Positions 1,520 to 23,278 of a DNA stretch of 25,171 nucleotides are shown here, one piece after another. The notes beneath the pieces were generated by a model. That model worked only from the letters and a program-made list of their open reading frames with translations. It was not told the DNA's origin and did no database searches. The translations under genes and the position numbers were made by a program. The stretch comes from a bacterium (GTDB lineage Bacteria > Patescibacteriota > Minisyncoccia > UBA6257 > UBA9933), in assembly GCA_021799155.1 (NCBI GenBank), contig JAJZBA010000001.1, positions 1 to 25,171 of the forward strand, in the 5' to 3' direction. Within the stretch, counting starts at the first letter, position 1. Every line of letters begins with the position of its first letter.

Positions 1520-1918
1520 TTATTCGGGCGGGAGGAAGAGGCTGTCAGGCGCTTCAACAATAGTGCATTTTGCTCCACCTCTTCCGGTTGCTGAGCCAGA
1601 ATATTCTCCGACCCACAGTTCGCCTTCGCGCTTAAACTTGTAGTAAATGATGTCGTTGCGGTTGTCGTATTTCTTTGCAAACTGCGCCTCTTTCTGGGTG
1701 ATTTTTACATCGAACAGCTCCGATTCGCCAAAATGATCAAACATTTCACCGATCAACTCTTGTTCGTTGTGAGGGTTAGGGAAAATCACCCCCGAGTACA
1801 TGAATCTGCAAAGCCCTTCATTGATTACAACGCCGACTCCGCCCTCAACTTCTGACCGATGAGCAACACTCAGCCAATTTTGATTTTGAAAGAAAAACCC
1901 CTGAATCAAGTGTGCCAT
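1520..1918 (-). CDS. Hypothetical protein (132 aa), SD-led
   Basis: Start reassigned from 2047 to ATG 1918 (MAHLIQGFFF), preceded by TAAGGAGGTG 4 nt upstream. No family recognised. Confidence 0.75.
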   Translation of the reverse strand: MAHLIQGFFFQNQNWLSVAHRSEVEGGVGVVINEGLCRFMYSGVIFPNPHNEQELIGEMFDHFGESELFDVKITQKEAQFAKKYDNRNDIIYYKFKREGELWVGEYSGSATGRGGAKCTIVEAPDSLFLPPE

Positions 1919-1977
1919 TCTACACCTCCTTATTGTATTGTTTGATTGATATGATTTGTTAATTTGAAATGGACTTA

Positions 1978-2208
1978 TTAACCGTTCAACCCGCCAGAAT
2001 ACGCAGAATGGCATGTCGGATAATCTTCGTTGAAAAACGAATGGCATGACTGACAGTGATTAATAATGAATCTTCCTTCATGACGGTAATAAATCTTAGT
2101 TTCTTTGTTGCATTTTGGGCATATTTCTGTTGTTTCTCCATACCTGATTGTAAGTAGTTTTTTCGCTTCCTTACATTCTTCGCAAATTTGTGCCTGATTC
2201 TTACTCAT
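1978..2208 (-). CDS. Small zinc-ribbon-like protein, SD-led
   Basis: Three CxxC motifs (CEEC, CPKC, CQSC) plus a further Cys in 76 aa; AAAGGAGG 4 nt before ATG. Confidence 0.72.
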   Translation of the reverse strand: MSKNQAQICEECKEAKKLLTIRYGETTEICPKCNKETKIYYRHEGRFIINHCQSCHSFFNEDYPTCHSAYSGGLNG

Positions 2209-2319
2209 ATCGCCTCCTTTTGTCTAAAAAATTTTGTTGAATTTAAGACTTTTAACTTCTCGTTCTCCTTTCATTTTTTATTATTAATGTTCAGAAAATA
2301 AAAAATTTCATTTTCAAAA

Positions 2320-2348
2320 AACATATCAGAAAATCACCACCCTGTCAA
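2320..2348 (-). promoter_or_regulatory. Putative sigma70 promoter for the 2208-1520 operon
   Basis: Minus strand TTGACA (2348-2343), 17-nt spacer, TATGTT (2325-2320). Confidence 0.5.
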
Positions 2349-2446
2349 GCCCATGGCCAAAAAAATTCAAAAGGGCTCTTTAACCCGCCTACCACACCAG
2401 CCGGCGGATTCGGATGGGTAAATAAAGACTATATTTTGAAAAAAAC

Positions 2447-2746
2447 TCATTCTCCACTGCGTCTAATTCTCTTTTTTATTTTTACTGTTTTTAAAAACGA
2501 TTTATTTTGCAATACTTTCATAAAATACGCGCCCTTATTTTTTATGTTTTTCCTTTCCGCCACGTCTTTGGCGATTCTTAATAAATCGTCGCTATTATGC
2601 TTTTTCGCCAGCTTAATGTAAAGCGACTTATGTTTTTCGTCGTTTAATAACTGAGCGATCAAAAGACCTGTTAATTGGTATTTTTTATAGACCCGGCTCT
2701 TTTGGGCGCGTTCTTTAAGAATTTCCAAATAATCTTTTTCTTCCAT
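2447..2746 (-). CDS. Small helical hypothetical protein (99 aa)
   Basis: Start moved to ATG 2746 (MEEKDYLE); the 2893 start would overlap the divergent fur/perR gene and its promoter. C-terminal KNKGAYFMKVL motif. Confidence 0.75.
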   Translation of the reverse strand: MEEKDYLEILKERAQKSRVYKKYQLTGLLIAQLLNDEKHKSLYIKLAKKHNSDDLLRIAKDVAERKNIKNKGAYFMKVLQNKSFLKTVKIKKRIRRSGE

Positions 2747-2774
2747 TTTTATAATTCTATCAAATTTCAGGCTC

Positions 2775-2819
2775 TTGACAAATCTTTTATTAAGAATATT
2801 ATTTAAATAATAATTATTA
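2775..2819 (+). promoter_or_regulatory. Putative sigma70 promoter with an overlapping Per/Fur-like box
   Basis: TTGACA 2775-2780, 16-nt spacer, TATTAT 2797-2802. AAATAATAATTATTA (2805-2819) matches 11 of 14 positions of the 7-1-7 Per box TTATAATnATTATAA. The AT-rich context weakens the call. Confidence 0.45.
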
Positions 2820-2830
2820 CTAATAAGAAA

Positions 2831-3193
2831 ATGGAGAGAAAAACATCCCAAAAAGAAACAATCATTCAATATTTGAAAAGCGTCAAAAGTCATCCGACGG
2901 CCGAAGAAGTTTATTTGGCGGTTAAAAGAAAACTGCCGCGAATCAGCTTAGGAACAGTTTATCGGATTTTAAATAATTTCAAAGAAAAGGGAGAAGTTTT
3001 AGAATTAGAAGGCGAGATTAATCGCTACGACGGCTATGTAAAACCTCATAATCATTTTATTTGCGAAAAATGTCAAAAAATTTACGATATTGAAGAAAAA
3101 ATTGATTTAAAACCGGAGAAAATAAAAATTGGAAAAGTTAATAAATATCAAATTTATTTTTACGGTTTATGTAAAAAATGCAAAGGTCGATAA
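2831..3193 (+). CDS. perR: Fur-family regulator, PerR-like
   Basis: HPTAEEVY, SLGTVYR, RYD, HNHFIC-xx-C, IYD and C-terminal CxxC. Asp (not Glu) after the first CxxC and linkage to ahpC favour PerR over Fur. Confidence 0.82.
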   Translation: MERKTSQKETIIQYLKSVKSHPTAEEVYLAVKRKLPRISLGTVYRILNNFKEKGEVLELEGEINRYDGYVKPHNHFICEKCQKIYDIEEKIDLKPEKIKIGKVNKYQIYFYGLCKKCKGR

Positions 3194-3210
3194 CGTTATA
3201 AATCAAAAAC

Positions 3211-3489
3211 ATGCTTTCACAAATACCAATCAATTTTGAAAAAGTTAAAAAAGAAGATTTGGACAAAGAAATTTTAAGAGTCGGAATGATAGCCGAGCTG
3301 GACGCAGTTAGTCTTTACGAACAGTTGGCGGAAATGACGGAAAACGAAAAAATCAAAAAAGTTCTCTTAGATATCGCCAAAGAAGAAAAAACCCATATCG
3401 GAGAATTTCAGGCACTACTTTTGGAGCGCGACCAGGAGCAGGTAGAGGAATTAAAAAAAGGAAAAGAAGAAGTCGAAGAATTAAAATAG
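3211..3489 (+). CDS. Short ferritin-like protein of the encapsulated-ferritin (EncFtn/Flp) type
   Basis: ILRVGMIAELDAVSLYEQ ... LLDIAKEEKTHIGEF ... DQEQVEEL matches the two-helix EncFtn ferroxidase pattern (E-x6-Y, EExxH). Confidence 0.85.
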   Translation: MLSQIPINFEKVKKEDLDKEILRVGMIAELDAVSLYEQLAEMTENEKIKKVLLDIAKEEKTHIGEFQALLLERDQEQVEELKKGKEEVEELK

Positions 3490-3526
3490 TAAAAAGTCGA
3501 AAATAATCACAAACAAAATAAATATT

Positions 3527-4093
3527 ATGGAAAATTTAATCGGTAAAAAAATTCAGGATTTTGAATTGGAGGCTTATCACGAAAACAAAATCAAAAAAAT
3601 CAAATTTTCCGATTACAAAGGAAAATGGATAGTTTTGATTTTTTATCCGGCTGATTTTACTTTTGTCTGTCCGACCGAACTGGAAGAAGCGGCCGAACTT
3701 TATCCGGAATTTAAAAAATTAGGAGCCGAAGTTTTAAGCGTTTCAACGGACACAGTTTTCGTTCATAAAGCCTGGCACGACGCCTCAAAAGCCATCAAAA
3801 AAATCAAATACCCGATGCTGGCCGACCCAACCGGAAAACTCTGCCGCGCTTTAGGGACTTATATCGAAGAAGAAGGTTTATCGCTGAGAGGAAGCTTTAT
3901 TATTGACCCCAACGGTGTAATTAAAGCTTACGAAATCCACGATAATAGTATCGGCCGAAGCGCCAAAGAACTATTAAGAAAACTTCAGGCCGCCAGGTTT
4001 GTTTCCGAACATAAAGGCCAAGTTTGTCCGGCAAGCTGGACTCCCGGTAAAAAAACCTTAAAACCGGGGCTGGACTTAGTAGGAAAAATATAA
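3527..4093 (+). CDS. ahpC: 2-Cys peroxiredoxin AhpC
   Basis: FYPADFTFVCPTE peroxidatic motif and VCPA resolving motif. Confidence 0.97.
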   Translation: MENLIGKKIQDFELEAYHENKIKKIKFSDYKGKWIVLIFYPADFTFVCPTELEEAAELYPEFKKLGAEVLSVSTDTVFVHKAWHDASKAIKKIKYPMLADPTGKLCRALGTYIEEEGLSLRGSFIIDPNGVIKAYEIHDNSIGRSAKELLRKLQAARFVSEHKGQVCPASWTPGKKTLKPGLDLVGKI

Positions 4094-4749: not shown

Positions 4750-5982
4750 ATGAAAAAAATTCTTAAAAATCGGTATTTTGCAATCGGTATTTTAATTATC
4801 GTCGTTGCCGCCCTGACCGGCGGGGCTTTTTATTTTGGATATAAAAGGGGGACGGAAAAACCGCAGACCGTTATTATTCGCGGAGTGGCAAATCTGGAAG
4901 AGGGGAATGTTGAAGCAGTTGATTTTTCTCTTTTTTGGGACGCTTGGAAAACATTAAAAGACAAATACGTTGGGGCAGATAAAATCAATAACCAAGACTT
5001 GGTTTACGGCGCGGTTTCCGGATTATTCGGAGCGCTGAAAGATCCGAATTCTGTCTTTTTTCCGCCATCGGACGCTAAAAAATTTGAAGAAGACATTGCC
5101 GGAGAGTTTTCCGGCATCGGCGCGGAAATCGGCATCAGAAACGACCAGTTAGTCATTATCGCTCCGCTTAAAAATTCGCCGGCCGAAAAAGCGGGTCTGA
5201 AAGCCGGGGATAAAATCATAAAAATTAACGACGCTTTTACCGTTGGCCTAAATGTTGACGAAGCCGTTAAATTAATCAGAGGTGAAAGAGGAACAAAAGT
5301 GATTTTGACAATTTCAAGAAACGGTTGGGAAAAATCAAAAGAAATTTCCATTATCAGAGATATTATTCAAGTCCCAACAATTGATTGGGAAATTAAAGAC
5401 AACAATATTGCTTATATTCATTTGTATAATTTTTACGAAAAAGCGCCGTTTTTGCTTTATCAAGCGATTTCCGAAATTGTTTTTAAAAATCCGAAAGGCA
5501 TTATTCTTGATTTGAGAGACAATCCGGGCGGATATTTAGAAGGGGCGGTTAATATTGCCGGTTGGTTCTTAGATCCCGGTAAAGTAGTTGTTAGCGAAGA
5601 ATTTCGTTCCGGCAAGAAAGAAGTTTTTAAAACTTACGGCAGCGGCTTATTTGACGGCTTTCCGATGGTTGTTTTAGTCAACGAAGGCTCGGCTTCGGCT
5701 TCGGAAATTTTAGCCGGCGCCCTGCGGGATAACAATAAAATTAAATTAATCGGCAAAAAAACTTTCGGAAAAGGAACTGTTCAGGAATTGGAAACGCTTA
5801 AAGACGGCTCAATGGTTAAAATTACAGTCGCTCACTGGCTGATGCCTAATGGCGGACTAATAGAAAAAAACGGCTTGAATCCGGATTATGAAGTCGACTT
5901 AACCGAAGAAGACGTTAAAGCCGGCAGAGACCCGCAGTTGGAAAAAGCAGTGGAAATTTTGAAATCGGAGATTTTAAAATAA
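4750..5982 (+). CDS. ctpA: S41 family C-terminal processing peptidase with PDZ domain
   Basis: N-terminal TM segment, GIG PDZ loop, ILDLRDNPGG, SASASEI, TFGKGTVQ, DPQLEKA. Confidence 0.93.
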   Translation: MKKILKNRYFAIGILIIVVAALTGGAFYFGYKRGTEKPQTVIIRGVANLEEGNVEAVDFSLFWDAWKTLKDKYVGADKINNQDLVYGAVSGLFGALKDPNSVFFPPSDAKKFEEDIAGEFSGIGAEIGIRNDQLVIIAPLKNSPAEKAGLKAGDKIIKINDAFTVGLNVDEAVKLIRGERGTKVILTISRNGWEKSKEISIIRDIIQVPTIDWEIKDNNIAYIHLYNFYEKAPFLLYQAISEIVFKNPKGIILDLRDNPGGYLEGAVNIAGWFLDPGKVVVSEEFRSGKKEVFKTYGSGLFDGFPMVVLVNEGSASASEILAGALRDNNKIKLIGKKTFGKGTVQELETLKDGSMVKITVAHWLMPNGGLIEKNGLNPDYEVDLTEEDVKAGRDPQLEKAVEILKSEILK

Positions 5983-6093
5983 ATTCCAAATCACAAACAA
6001 ATTTTCTAAATTCTAATTTCCAAATTCAAAACGTGAGTTTAGAATTTTGACATTTGATATTGTTTGTAATTTGGTGCTTGGGATTTGGAATTT
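5981..6093. repeat. 113-bp heptamer-repeat hairpin, copy 1 (inverted partner at 6907-7019)
   Basis: 111/113 identical to the reverse complement of 6907-7019; internally self-complementary (AAATTCCAAATC ... GATTTGGAATTT). Confidence 0.95.
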
Positions 6094-6101
6094 AATATAA
6101 T

Positions 6102-6563
6102 ATGCAAGTAATTCTTCTCCAAGACATAAAATCGCTCGGTAAAAAATTTGACGTGAAAGAAGTCAAAGACGGTTATGCTCGCAATTTTTTAATTCCTAAA
6201 GGACTGGCAAAAATCGCAACCGATGCCGCAGTAAAAGAATTAGAATTAAAAAAAGCGGCTCAAGAAAAAGAAGAAAAAGAAACAAAGGATAAACTGGAAA
6301 CACTGGCCGAAAAATTGACGGATAAAGAATTTCAATTCGCGGTTAAGGTCGGAGAAAAAGATGAGGTCTTCGGTTCTGTTAATAAAAACGACATTAAAGC
6401 GTTGATTTGCGCAGAAATAGACGCCGATTTACGAAAACGCATCGAAGATAAAATAGAAATAAATTTAGAGCGGCCAATAAAAACACTCGGTGAACACCAA
6501 GTAGAAATTGATTTAGGAAAAGGAGTTAAGACGAAAATTAAACTGAAAGTACTTGCCCAGTAG
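6102..6563 (+). CDS. rplI: 50S ribosomal protein L9
   Basis: MQVILLQDIKSLGK, VKDGYARNFLIP, FGSV, PIKTLGEH. Confidence 0.97.
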   Translation: MQVILLQDIKSLGKKFDVKEVKDGYARNFLIPKGLAKIATDAAVKELELKKAAQEKEEKETKDKLETLAEKLTDKEFQFAVKVGEKDEVFGSVNKNDIKALICAEIDADLRKRIEDKIEINLERPIKTLGEHQVEIDLGKGVKTKIKLKVLAQ

Positions 6564-6632
6564 TAAAAATTTGGTTTGCGCCTACGGCGCGCATTTTTTT
6601 ATAAAAAATGCAAACCAAAAATTTCACTACTG
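6558..6632. terminator. Composite inverted repeat between convergent rplI and rpmA (possible bidirectional terminator)
   Basis: CAGTAG..AAATTTGGTTTGC / GCAAACCAAAAATTT..CTACTG outer arms, inner GCATTTTTT / AAAAAATGC and a GCGCC-TAC-GGCGC mini-hairpin. Confidence 0.55.
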
Positions 6633-6899
6633 GACTTGGACAACCTTAACCTTTCGGCTGTTGCCGTCAAAACAAACTTTTTTCTTGGAAACAAATTTAA
6701 CGACGCCTGATTTCAAAGCGTAAAGAGTATCGTCTTTGCCGCGGCCGACGTTTAAACCGGCAAGATATTTGGTGCCGCGCTGTCGAATCAAAATTTCGCC
6801 GGCTTTAACCATTTCTCTGTTTTGTCTTTTTACGCCCAATCTTTTGGAAATCGAATCTCTCCCTAATTTAGTTGAACCGTAGGATTTAGTATGTGCCAT
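6627..6899 (-). CDS. rpmA: 50S ribosomal protein L27
   Basis: [36 protein letters not shown]. Start set to ATG 6899; the upstream extension in the ORF track is repeat sequence. Confidence 0.97.
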
Positions 6900-6906
6900 A
6901 ATAATA

Positions 6907-7019
6907 AAATTCCAAATCCCAAGCACCAAATTACAAACAATATCAAATGTCAAAATTCTAAACTCGTGTTTTGAATTTGGAAATTAGAATTTAGAAAATT
7001 TGTTTGTGATTTGGAATTT
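6907..7019. repeat. 113-bp heptamer-repeat hairpin, copy 2 (inverted relative to 5981-6093)
   Basis: Only two substitutions versus copy 1, both in the hairpin loop (ACGTGAG vs ACACGAG). Confidence 0.95.
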
Positions 7020-7062
7020 GTGATTTGGTATTTCTTTGAATTATATTATATAATTCAAAGGT

Positions 7063-7779
7063 ATGTCAATAACCAGTAAACTTATTTTTGATATTGAAAC
7101 CGTCGGCGTTGATTTTGATTCCCTAGATAAAACTACTCAAGACTCTCTTACGCGCTGGATTAAAAAAGAATCGGTCGGTGAAGAAGAATATCAGGTGGCG
7201 CTGGAAGAACTGAAAAACGGACTCGGTTTTTCACCTTTAACCGGAGAAATAGTAGTTATCGGCGTTTTAGATTATGTAAAAAATCAAGGCGTTGTTTATT
7301 TTCAAGCCCCCAATCAAGAAATAAAAGAATTTTGTGAAGATAATATTACATTTAAACAAGCCACCGAAAAAGAAATGCTGGAGCATTTTTGGAATGGCGC
7401 CAAAATGTACGATGAATTTATCGGATTCAATAGCCGGCAGTTTGACGGCCCGTTTTTAATGATCCGTTCGGCTTACCACGGCATCAAGCCGACTAAAAAT
7501 CTTTCCGAAAGCCGGTATTTATACCAACAAAAAACCTGCGCTCATATTGATTTGGCGGACCAACTCACTTTTCAAGGCAATATGAGAAAAAAGGGGAGCC
7601 TGCATTTGTGGAGCAAACTTTTTGACATAAAAAGCCCCAAAGAAGACGGCGTTACCGGAGACGATATGGGCCGACTATTCAAAGAGAAAAAATTTTTAGA
7701 TATTGCGAGATATAATGCGGGCGATCTCCGGGCAACTAAAAAACTTTACGAAAAGTGGAACCAATATCTTAATATTTAA
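7063..7779 (+). CDS. RNase H-like 3'-5' exonuclease domain protein (PolB-exonuclease-like / YprB-like)
   Basis: LIFDIET (ExoI), FNSRQFDGPF (ExoII), YNAGDL (ExoIII): DEDD-type motif set. Confidence 0.8.
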   Translation: MSITSKLIFDIETVGVDFDSLDKTTQDSLTRWIKKESVGEEEYQVALEELKNGLGFSPLTGEIVVIGVLDYVKNQGVVYFQAPNQEIKEFCEDNITFKQATEKEMLEHFWNGAKMYDEFIGFNSRQFDGPFLMIRSAYHGIKPTKNLSESRYLYQQKTCAHIDLADQLTFQGNMRKKGSLHLWSKLFDIKSPKEDGVTGDDMGRLFKEKKFLDIARYNAGDLRATKKLYEKWNQYLNI

Positions 7780-7830
7780 TTCAAAATTCAAAAATCAAAA
7801 TGCAAAATTACAAATCAAAAATAAAAAATA
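7780..7830 (+). repeat. A-rich heptamer array (TCAAAAT-like)
   Basis: TCAAAAT TCAAAAA TCAAAAT GCAAAAT TACAAAT CAAAAAT; contains the ATG of the next ORF. Confidence 0.8.
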
Positions 7831-7976
7831 CAAGAGAATGGTTAGAAAATAATCTCCGAACAATTATTCTTTTCTTTTTAATATTTCTGGTTAGTTCGAT
7901 TAGTTTTGGTTTGGGTTATTTGGTTAATCGCGAATTCACCCATACACCAATTATTATTGAGAAAACATGCAATTAA
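7800..7976 (+). CDS. Small single-pass membrane protein (58 aa), missed by the ORF track
   Basis: Manual translation: MQNYKSKIKNTREWLENNLRTIILFFLIFLVSSISFGLGYLVNREFTHTPIIIEKTCN*. One clear TM helix; 21 nt after the upstream stop. Confidence 0.72.
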   Translation: MQNYKSKIKNTREWLENNLRTIILFFLIFLVSSISFGLGYLVNREFTHTPIIIEKTCN

Positions 7977-8057
7977 TTCGAAATAAGTTTTCCTAAAAAC
8001 TATAAAACTATAGGTGATTTTTGACTATGAAAAATTGAAAATAGATATCCTATCCTT

Positions 8058-8089
8058 ATAGAGTGTTATGCTATAGCATAACACTCTAT
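8058..8089. promoter_or_regulatory. Perfect 32-bp palindrome with core TGTTATGCTATAGCATAACA (copy 1 of 5)
   Basis: ATAGAGTGTTATGCTATAGCATAACACTCTAT is its own reverse complement. Confidence 0.8.
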
Positions 8090-8201
8090 TTTTTCTATTT
8101 TATATTTATAAATTAATAAATTAATCAAAATATCGCGACCGCGGAAATTTTAATTCAACCGCAACTCGATCGTAATAGAGAAGCATTCTAAGTAAAAATA
8201 A

Positions 8202-14266: not shown

Positions 14267-15202
14267 TTAAGGACTCCAGTTTATTATCACATCATCAACC
14301 CGTGGACTTTCAGTTTGCGCGGCATTGGAAACCAAAAAAATTTTATAGCGAAAATAGCGGTGGTTATTATGATAAGCTAAATTAATCTGTGCCGGAACGC
14401 CCGGACCGGTAGGCGTGTAATAAGTAGTATTTGAACCGTCGGGCCCTTTATAATTCCAACTGGCCGGCGTTGAAGTGGTATCGGAAGCAATCTGAAATTT
14501 AACCATAGTGCCGGTCGGCTGACTCCCCTGCCACATAATGGTATTAATGGCCGCTCCGGTTGAAACGCCGGTGTCAAAAATTGAAGAGGTTAATTCAGCG
14601 GTTTTTGGATTTGAACGCCAAGCGGTTTTAACTTTGTAATCGGAAGTAGCGCAAATACTAGTATCAGAGCAATTAAAACTAATCCAGCCGACAATATCAT
14701 TCCAAGCCCAACCGGAAAAGTCGCCTGTGGAATTATTAATCGTTACTTGATAAGGATAACTCGAACCGGCAGTACCGCTATCAAAACTAATCCAGCCGAT
14801 GGCATCATTGTAAGCCCAGCCGGTTAAATTGCCGTTGCCGTCATTAGAAACTTTAAAATTAGAAGTGGCGCAGATATCGCCGTTCGGCGAAGTGGCGCAA
14901 TCAAGAGCGATGTAGCCGACCGAAGAAGTAGCGTAACCGGTTAATTGAGTGGAAGTCACATTGACGTTTCCAGTTTGATAAAAATCAATCCAGCCGATGT
15001 TATCGTTCCAGGCGTACCTATATGTAGCATCTATATTTGTTGCCGCACTTACCATCTTTGGAATTAAAGCACTAAGCACCAAGCACCAAATTCCAAATAA
15101 TATCCAACGACCAAAATTCAAATGACCAAAACGTGTTTGGAATTTCGAAAATTGGAATTTGGAATTTATTTGGGATTTGGGATTTGGAATTTGGAATTTC
15201 AT
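14267..15202 (-). CDS. Secreted protein with repeated G(W/Y)AWNDxxGWIxF motifs, last gene of the pilus cluster
   Basis: YAWNDNIGWIDF, GWAYNDAIGWISF, GWAWNDIVGWISF; Ser/Thr/Asn-rich; signal-like N-terminus ending VSA-A. Confidence 0.8.
   Translation of the reverse strand: MKFQIPNPKSQINSKFQFSKFQTRFGHLNFGRWILFGIWCLVLSALIPKMVSAATNIDATYRYAWNDNIGWIDFYQTGNVNVTSTQLTGYATSSVGYIALDCATSPNGDICATSNFKVSNDGNGNLTGWAYNDAIGWISFDSGTAGSSYPYQVTINNSTGDFSGWAWNDIVGWISFNCSDTSICATSDYKVKTAWRSNPKTAELTSSIFDTGVSTGAAINTIMWQGSQPTGTMVKFQIASDTTSTPASWNYKGPDGSNTTYYTPTGPGVPAQINLAYHNNHRYFRYKIFLVSNAAQTESPRVDDVIINWSP
15070..15200. repeat. Heptamer hairpin of the same family as 5981-6093, inside the 5' end of a CDS
   Basis: Shares AAGCACCAAATT, AAAACGTG and GGGATTTGGAATTT words with the rplI/rpmA elements. 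Confidence 0.8.
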
Positions 15203-21362: not shown

Positions 21363-21487
21363 CGTTCGCTCCGCTCGCTACCACCGATACAAAACTACAA
21401 ATAGTTAGTGCGAATCTCCAAATAGTATATTCGTAGATTCGAATGAATTCGTAGTTTCGCATCGCGTAACAGTGAGCGAAACGAACG
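21363..21487 (-). repeat. 125-nt hairpin element, copy in the 16S 3' trailer
   Basis: 122/125 identical to 23082-23206, same orientation. Confidence 0.95.
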
Positions 21488-22103
21488 ATATCGACACTTT
21501 TTTAGTTTAGTTGTTCCACGCACAGCTTCCGCTACGCGTGCCTTGTTACGACTTCTGCCATGTCACCGAACTTACCTTAATCCCGCCTAAGCGAGACTTC
21601 AGGCACTCCCGGCTCCCTTGCAGTGACGGGCGGTGAGTACAGGACTCGAGAACGTATTCACCGCGCCATGGCTGATGCGCGATTACTAGCGATTCCAGCT
21701 TCATGAGGGCGAGTTTCAGCCCTCAATCCGAACTGAGGTCGGCTTTGATGGGATTAGCTCCGCCTTGCGGCTTGGCAAACCCATTGTACCGACCATTGTA
21801 GCATGAGTGTGGCCCAGGGCATCAAAGGGCCATGCGGATTTGACGTCATCCCCGCCTTCCTCCCCCTAATGAGGGCAGTCTTCCGAGACACTTATAACTC
21901 GGAACAGGGGTTGCGCTCGTTACCCCACTTAAGGGAACGCTTCAAAGTACGAGCTGACGACAACCATGCAGCACCTGTCCTGCCGTCCTTGAGAGACGAC
22001 CATCCTTTCGGACGATCTTCGTCAGGATTTCAAGCCCTGGTAAGGTTCCTCGTTTACCGTCGAATTAAACCTCATGCTCCACCGCTTGTGCGAGTCCCCG
22101 TCT

Positions 22104-23081: not shown

Positions 23082-23206
23082 CGCTCGCTCCGCTCGCTAT
23101 CACCGATACAAAACTACAAATAGTTAGTGCGAATCTCCAAATAGTATATTCGTAGATTCGAATGAATTCGTAGTTTCGCATCGCGTAACAGTGAGCGAAG
23201 CGAACG
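23082..23206 (-). repeat. 125-nt hairpin element inserted at the tip of 16S helix 6 (V1)
   Basis: Lies between CAAGTCGAGCGAT and TTAGCGGCGAACG; folds as one long imperfect hairpin. Confidence 0.93.
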
Positions 23207-23278
23207 ATCGCTCGACTTGCATGCCTTATCCACGCCGCCAGCGTTCATCCTGAGCTAGGATCAAACTCTCAAATAAAC

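Follow-up and report, generated by a model that had tools for sequence, protein, structure and literature searches.

The inverted repeat around rplI and rpmA in a reduced bacterial genome and its place in a dispersed palindromic repeat family

Why are two convergent genes for ribosomal proteins each preceded by the same long sequence? The question is raised by rplI and rpmA, encoding ribosomal proteins L9 and L27, in a 25,171-nt stretch of the genome of a member of the Patescibacteriota (GenBank assembly GCA_021799155.1, contig JAJZBA010000001.1, positions 1 to 25,171; the whole stretch is called the window here). Both genes are enclosed by an inverted repeat of 113 bp, for which an earlier note, made from the letters of the sequence, had offered three explanations: a recent duplication or gene conversion, a regulatory leader shared by the two genes, or an invertible segment. 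The analysis presented here shows that both arms belong to a family of repeats dispersed over the genome, and the inverted repeat is probably made up of two recently copied members of this non-coding palindromic family.

The two copies at rplI and rpmA

A repeat search of the window retrieved two arms of 116 nt (5981-6096 and 6904-7019) that are 97% complementary and lie 807 nt apart. Alignment of the 113-nt cores, at positions 5981 to 6093 and 6907 to 7019, showed them to be reverse complements at 111 of 113 positions. The two mismatches are adjacent and lie at the centre of the hairpin loop, where the left copy reads GT and the right copy, once reverse-complemented, AC. The near-perfect repeat described in the earlier note, with both of its differences in the loop, was thus borne out. 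Each copy is itself a quasi-palindrome, approximately 73% self-complementary, and RNA folding gave a long imperfect hairpin for both. The left copy, on the plus strand, overlaps the stop codon of the upstream gene ctpA (5980-5982) and folds with −26.7 kcal/mol (z = −2.5). The right copy, on the minus strand and thus inverted relative to the left one, folds with −24.4 kcal/mol (z = −1.6). The ATG of rplI at position 6102 is found 8 nt past the left copy, and that of rpmA (6899-6897, minus strand) 7 nt past the right copy, so that the same element does stand just upstream of both genes, as had been claimed. At its outer end the right copy carries two extra heptamers (GTGATTT GGTATTT on the plus strand; 7020-7033, assigned to the minus strand with the copy), and its match to the repeat family spans positions 6907 to 7033. 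The central GT and AC are dinucleotide reverse complements of each other, and a trace of a flipped loop was considered for them; two adjacent transitions explain the difference equally well, and the chance of such a coincidence is roughly 1 in 9 to 1 in 4.

The genome is a metagenome bin fragmented into 67 contigs, in which one copy could be a consensus or a mis-join made during assembly, a concern that the earlier note had itself raised. However, two independent MEGAHIT k141 contigs of an ENA assembly carry both copies together with their flanks, matching window positions 5565 to 6982 and 6907 to 8112 at 100%. Moreover, in Logan contigs built at k = 31 from five samples, those with ctpA end at position 6010 and those with exo, the gene divergent from rpmA, start at position 6990. 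Both break points, one on each outer side, are 30 nt inside the element, which is where a true repeat boundary is expected to create a branch in the graph, and one of the exo contigs is recorded in five samples. The contig ends of the genome itself overlap by exactly 126 nt in many cases, which points to a k = 127 graph, longer than the repeat. The independent k141 contigs contradict a consensus artefact, and the two-copy structure is almost certainly real.

A dispersed family and its insertion beside the two genes

Further copies are numerous. The 113-nt query gave 36 matches in the genome (478,722 bp in 67 contigs, 95% complete), and the full-length copies on other contigs are 70 to 83% identical to it. 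A census with an iterated nhmmer profile, which provides the genome-wide count that the earlier note had called for, placed the family at 22 loci, with about 15 copies of full length. The third full-length member of the window (15074-15192, minus strand), located between two pilin-like genes, is the sole other one there and is approximately 75% identical, in agreement with the earlier observation that other members nearby are more divergent.

The family has a characteristic architecture of approximately 115 nt, AT-rich, with a periodicity of 7 nt and no open reading frame (ORF). In every copy, AAATTCC-type heptamers form the left arm and GGAATTT-type heptamers the right arm, with a short loop between them. 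One subtype is built of AAATCCG/CGGATTT heptamers instead, and between these CC and CG subtypes the arms co-vary from CG to GC at several pairs. The termini, AAATTCCAAAT...ATTTGGAATTT, pair with each other as terminal inverted repeats. Of 240 cells for the 16 outermost consensus pairs, 230 retain the pair, and changes on both sides were seen at five pairs. Searches of Rfam, at the gathering threshold and at permissive E-values, retrieved no family for the element and gave only spurious sub-threshold matches to microRNA hairpins. The distribution among related bacteria is patchy: of 51 genomes from the same taxonomic family, 22 (in 17 of 34 genera) have a match, and the number per genome ranges from 0 to 23. 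In the library of literature that was searched, no account of the element family in genomes of the candidate phyla radiation was found.

The pair at rplI and rpmA is not alone in its near-identity. Genome-wide self-comparison revealed one other near-identical set in the family, consisting of three copies with 98 to 99% mutual identity. The first (C21:16017-16145, minus strand; locus L062:4018-4146) lies inside a 23S rRNA gene, in helix 25, where it is found at the tip of a hairpin at positions ~572 to 600 of the Rfam large-subunit rRNA (LSU) model (insertion at ~583/584), on an extended stem of 11 bp. The second (C26:12134-12262) is in the spacer between tuf and rpsJ, and the third (C61:5396-5509) is in the spacer between mraZ and rsmH, in the opposite orientation with respect to transcription. 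This unlinked set indicates that near-identity marks recent copying and not a leader specific to ribosomal proteins. Of the explanations offered earlier, the first, a recent duplication or gene conversion, is the one that gained support, with the pair as part of a wider family of heptamer repeats.

Other inserts and duplications were observed in the same genome. The 23S rRNA gene with the helix-25 copy has a second insert, of ~76 nt, at LSU position 312/313. Two more pairs of direct repeats of ~126 nt, 98% identical and 1.6 to 1.8 kb apart, are located in or beside rRNA genes (window positions 21363-21489 and 23082-23208; C21:12592-12717 and 14517-14642). Short-range duplication of hairpin elements seems to recur in this genome. 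A tandem duplication of 522 nt with 99.8% identity was also found, with 43 nt between its two units (C15:750-1271 and 1314-1835).

The members of the family keep a distinctive position with respect to genes. Start-proximal copies precede rplI, rpmA, rplO, rpsJ, rpsU, rnc, dnaK, rsmH, parB and murG. They typically end 7 to 24 nt before the ATG (approximately 1 nt for the copy at rsmH) and begin 0 to 18 nt after the upstream gene or within its tail. Their orientation with respect to transcription is mixed, with roughly 9 sense and 5 antisense copies as judged by the strand of the best profile match.

In some places an ORF continues through a whole or half copy. On contig C46, a full-length element of 129 nt (43 codons) is found in frame in the middle of an ORF of 619 amino acids (1790-3649; locus L009:405-2261, minus strand), a putative gene for a multi-pass membrane protein that has no Pfam match and reads ...KFQAPSTKSQ...NWNLFGIWNLEFGI... 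Four further ORFs, for S5, a HIT-family protein, ParA and enolase, continue beyond their conserved ends into an element (C26:2301-2430, C5:4775-4900, C52:2735-2863 and C48:7563-7688). The tails that the elements provide are rich in K, Q, N and S (for example, ...KSQIPNPK) and probably represent traps for annotation or C-terminal extensions that are tolerated.

The polarity of the change at rplI and rpmA was obtained from 19 relatives that represent 19 genera. Neither the order nor the orientation of the genes varies among them, with ctpA followed by rplI, rpmA convergent with rplI, and exo divergent from rpmA; 18 have all four genes, and one locus is without exo. The gap between ctpA and rplI measures −7 to +16 nt in 12 of the 19, and in most relatives the stop codon of ctpA abuts or overlaps the start of rplI. 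Where short, as in most relatives, the spacer between rpmA and exo measures 31 to 59 nt and contains a conserved AT-rich core beside exo. None of the 19 relatives has the element in either spacer, and subtracting it from the window leaves spacers of 8 nt (ctpA-rplI) and ~40 nt (rpmA-exo), which are of the ancestral type in size. The short spacers of the relatives indicate that both copies are lineage-specific insertions. Some relatives hold other structures in these spacers, which are either a different structured leader (described in the next section) or unrelated palindromic heptamer elements, found between ctpA and rplI in genome G023 and between rpmA and exo in G021 and G019. Unrelated palindromes in both places show that these spacers are recurrent landing sites.

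A sequence of events can be proposed from these observations. In the ancestor, ctpA would have run directly into rplI, and rpmA would have stood ~40 nt from the divergent exo. In the lineage of the window, one copy of the element would then have landed in each of the two short spacers, the second copy probably derived from the first by local copy-and-paste or gene conversion. Its inverted orientation would have been a 50:50 outcome. The elements are most likely selfish or neutral, and the insertions may have been tolerated because they had no Shine-Dalgarno pairing to disrupt and spared the last 7 to 14 nt before the start codon. That these last bases are spared so consistently suggests purifying selection on the region of initiation, and not a positive function of the element. 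The 3′ tail of the 16S rRNA (window positions 21504-21530, minus strand) reads GGAACAACTAAAC and has no CCTCC, the anti-Shine-Dalgarno sequence being missing, so that there is no such pairing for insertions to disturb. Starts of housekeeping genes in this genome are AT-rich and have no Shine-Dalgarno sequence. Both copies would be transcribed, the left one as an intercistronic hairpin and the right one as nearly all of the 5′ untranslated region (UTR) of rpmA, and the RNA hairpin may be trimmed by RNase III, as with the intervening sequences of helix 25. The genome has an RNase III gene (rnc).

Several points weigh against this proposal. No consistent direct duplication of a target site was observed at the flanks of ~12 copies inspected, and no cognate transposase was found in searches that covered the Y1_Tnp and Phage_integrase families. 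The best match to the Y1/RAYT transposase family (PF01797) reached 15 bits against a cut-off of 23, and the Phage_integrase search of the genome retrieved one Xer-like match, its sole tyrosine recombinase, on contig C40. Random re-insertion is unlikely to have placed two near-identical copies within 0.8 kb of each other, and local hopping or gene conversion must therefore be invoked. In addition, 5 of approximately 12 start-proximal copies precede ribosomal protein genes. This is above the share of such genes, in a count made post hoc and in a small genome dominated by highly expressed operons, and a role in expression thus retains some plausibility. Finally, one contig with a recombinant junction (L050, discussed below) has to be counted on the same side.

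Recent insertion could be dispensed with if two older, diverged members in inverted orientation had been homogenized by repeated RecA-dependent gene conversion. The genome has recA, the copies are only 813 nt apart, and their identity ends exactly at the ends of the element, with both differences at the centre of the loop. In a k = 31 contig assembled from another sample (L051), the centre allele of the left copy stands in the right-hand context, as conversion would produce, although this swap may be the result of bubble-popping in the k = 31 graph. Local conversion, however, does not explain why unlinked copies on three contigs are equally near-identical, and members that are 70 to 83% identical, as the others are, are expected to be a poor substrate for conversion to start from. 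Such concerted evolution is unlikely, and recent copying of a dispersed repeat is preferred as the origin of the pair.

Transcripts, leaders and the orientation of the segment

The genes of the locus were assigned with Pfam. They comprise ctpA (4750-5982, plus strand), for an S41 peptidase with a PDZ domain, rplI (6102-6563, plus strand), rpmA (6627-6899, minus strand) and exo (7063-7779, plus strand), an exonuclease gene of the RNase_H_2 or DNA_pol_B_exo2-like type. The gene name thpR is backed by the Pfam family LigT/ThpR recorded for the called gene. Between the convergent rplI and rpmA there is a bidirectional terminator hairpin (6565-6624), with a GC stem at positions 6577 to 6591, T runs on both strands and arms that reach both stop codons.

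A sigma-70-type promoter that matches the consensus at 12 of 12 positions (TTGACA-18-TATAAT; 7040-7069, minus strand) is directed toward rpmA. Its −35 hexamer overlaps the start codon of exo, with TTGACA the reverse complement of exo codons 1 and 2 plus the first base of codon 3 (ATGTCAA); TTGACAT can be seen in about six of the relatives, and the remainder are consistent with it. The right copy lies wholly between this promoter and the ATG of rpmA and thus makes up most of a predicted 5′ UTR of ~133 nt, in a place where minimal relatives have ~10 nt. In the other direction, a promoter-like site for exo (TTGGTA-18-TATAAT; 7025-7054, plus strand) obtains its −35-like TTGGTA from the two extra heptamers of the right copy. 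The ATG of exo follows 8 nt after the −10 hexamer, so that its mRNA is probably leaderless. The divergent promoters overlap at window positions 7037 to 7069 and have one AT-rich core in common. A promoter scan revealed no convincing promoter between ctpA and rplI, so that the simplest reading of the left copy is a hairpin between cistrons of a thpR-ctpA-rplI message. No promoter was found inside the rplI-rpmA segment either. Two candidate sites were rejected. TTTCCA-17-TAGAAT (9/12), internal to the element, is no better than the expectation from shuffled sequence (13 found versus 9.3 expected) and was not seen by eye in other aligned copies, and a TATAAT that abuts the ATG of rplI is too near to serve this gene.

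With both copies in predicted leader or intercistronic positions and in the same orientation relative to their genes, the hairpin could have been selected for joint control of the translation or mRNA stability of L9 and L27, for example through an RNA-binding factor or RNase III. That several further copies precede the ribosomal protein genes rplO, rpsJ and rpsU is in line with this idea. About six relatives have a different leader hairpin that sequesters the start codon of rpmA, and rpmA leaders may thus be regulatory in this clade. However, an autoregulatory leader is recognized by a structure that different species share upstream of the same gene, and the element is missing from both spacers in the 19 relatives. 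Members of the family also stand before unrelated genes (dnaK, parB, rsmH and rnc), within ORFs and within 23S rRNA, in both orientations, and the genes next to the copies of the other near-identical set are not linked in function. It is quite improbable that the hairpin is a regulatory leader of this kind. The statement that the two genes have the same leader is correct in the physical sense, as the same sequence precedes both ATGs; as a dedicated regulatory device, it gained no support, given the 19 relatives and the unrelated genes behind other copies.

The different leader found in relatives deserves description of its own. Upstream of rpmA, in the spacer toward exo, genomes G023, G022 and G007 have a GC-rich, single-copy conserved element of ~240 nt with 82 to 86% identity (L031:815-1056, plus strand; L078:1501-1740, minus strand; and L079:1501-1739, minus strand, respectively). 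A long stem encloses it, and in its final hairpin CAU is paired with the AUG of rpmA; it has no match in Rfam and is absent from the window. Shorter rpmA hairpins that sequester the AUG are found in G008, G009 and G011. The ~240-nt element is possibly an undescribed L27 leader.

The remaining explanation is that recombination between the copies flips the 0.8-kb block formed by rplI, the terminator and rpmA. The geometry on which this suggestion was built is right, as inversion would swap which of the two genes follows ctpA. The copies are a suitable substrate, being 113 bp long, 98% identical and inverted in a recA-positive genome, and both ATGs are 7 to 8 nt from the inner ends of the repeat, so that intact units would result in either orientation. 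One contig of 1,021 nt (L050, sample SRR30558018) reads from exo through the element into rplI, which is the junction of a recombinant. However, both repeat halves (55 and 56 nt) exceed k = 31, which makes the graph identical for the two arrangements and for the two linkages of the centre allele, and this contig has low coverage and ends 46 nt short of the junction between rpmA and the element, just where a coverage gap would yield a chimeric path. The contig L051 (sample SRR28264343, k = 31) has parental flanks and the centre allele of the other copy, which suggests that such k = 31 contigs mix both copies, unless the conversion is real. Both the L050 junction and the L051 allele were set aside as indecisive evidence of inversion or conversion, as the k = 31 graph collapses both repeat halves.

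The k = 127 and k141 assemblies give the parental arrangement only, and the comparison of orientation in relatives, which had been proposed as a check, gave the same order in 19 genera with none inverted. Among the ORFs between positions 4000 and 9500 no recombinase gene is found in or beside the segment, the lone tyrosine recombinase being on contig C40, and the flanked DNA consists of two whole genes and a terminator, with no promoter inside. In exact-protein look-ups of L9, L27, Exo and CtpA, made to find population evidence of inversion, the contigs listed were all short; for the extended L27 ORF of 108 amino acids, no exact-protein record was found. A metagenome scan with a 38-nt arm of the element gave a single match, QZGF01000006.1, which corresponds to the copy at the C18 locus and not to that at rplI. 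An invertible segment is thus unsupported, and it is very unlikely that natural populations contain the block in both orientations, as a cassette flipped by RecA without a dedicated invertase. If they did, inversion would exchange L9 and L27 between the ctpA operon and the consensus promoter beside exo, and a switch would have been made from a selfish palindromic repeat.

Relation to known palindromic repeats

The two copies, taken as recently copied members of a dispersed family, can be compared with several known classes of repeats. Correia elements (CREE/NEMIS) of Neisseria are non-coding, 100 to 155 bp long and present in many dispersed copies with terminal inverted repeats; they are inserted beside genes and co-transcribed with them, can provide promoter hexamers, and form RNA hairpins that are bound or cut by RNase III (PMC2649163, PMC2229807). 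The elements described here are likewise small, dispersed and gene-adjacent with terminal inverted repeats, their outer heptamers give a −35-like hexamer to exo, and rnc is present. They have no sequence relation to Correia elements, however, and no TA target duplication was seen; RNase III cleavage would be a further likeness if it occurs here. The design also differs, with terminal inverted repeats around a core in Correia elements and whole-length quasi-palindromes with a 7-nt periodicity in the window.

Rickettsia palindromic elements (RPE), reportedly described by Ogata et al. in 2000, are said to be palindromic repeats of ~100 to 150 nt in a reduced genome. They are found between genes, apparently in frame in protein-coding genes, and in RNA genes. 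At the level of this general description, which is a likeness of location and not of compared sequence, the copies here are similar in that they lie between genes, are read through by ORFs and, in one case, reside in 23S rRNA. In contrast to RPE, they belong to another phylum and have a heptamer periodicity that is not an RPE trait, and the translation of their in-frame copies is putative.

REP/BIME and ERIC/IRU sequences are extragenic palindromic repeats in the intercistronic spacers of operons, where they are transcribed as mRNA hairpins (PMC3184786). The palindromes of the present family are similarly found in operon spacers. Unlike REP sequences, which are GC-rich, 20 to 40 nt long and mobilized by RAYT, their units are AT-rich and ~115 nt long, and no Y1 transposase in this genome passed the cut-off.

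Helix 25 of 23S rRNA is a classic site of intervening sequences, which RNase III excises in Salmonella. The C21 copy of the near-identical set resembles them as a hairpin inserted at the tip of helix 25, whereas the copies at rplI and rpmA are in mRNA and not in rRNA. The bracketing of a short segment by inverted repeats, with a flip that would reassign genes to promoters, is also reminiscent of invertible promoter switches, such as fimS, hin and the invertons of Bacteroides. Unlike those, the repeats here measure 113 bp versus 10 to 30 bp and have no site-specific recombinase next to them, and the segment contains two complete genes and a terminator instead of a promoter. On the best reading, the element is closest in kind to the miniature inverted-repeat transposable elements, Correia elements, RPE and REP repeats. 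With no target-site duplication found, and no parent transposase among the Y1_Tnp and Phage_integrase families searched, it is filed among palindromic dispersed repeats in general and under no named family.

The inverted repeat at rplI and rpmA itself reveals no new mechanism. It is a clear case of a palindromic repeat colonizing the few non-coding bases of an ultra-small genome, and the facts at the level of the family are of more interest than the pair itself. The family joins the intervening sequences of rRNA, hairpins between cistrons and inserts read in frame within genes to one mobile sequence class. For the annotation of these genomes, mis-called gene starts and ends are to be expected where ORFs enter the repeats. 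For the organism, the copies lengthen the leaders of essential genes in a cell that has no Shine-Dalgarno pairing, and they are of relevance to how such repeats spread, and at what cost, in episymbiotic bacteria with reduced genomes.

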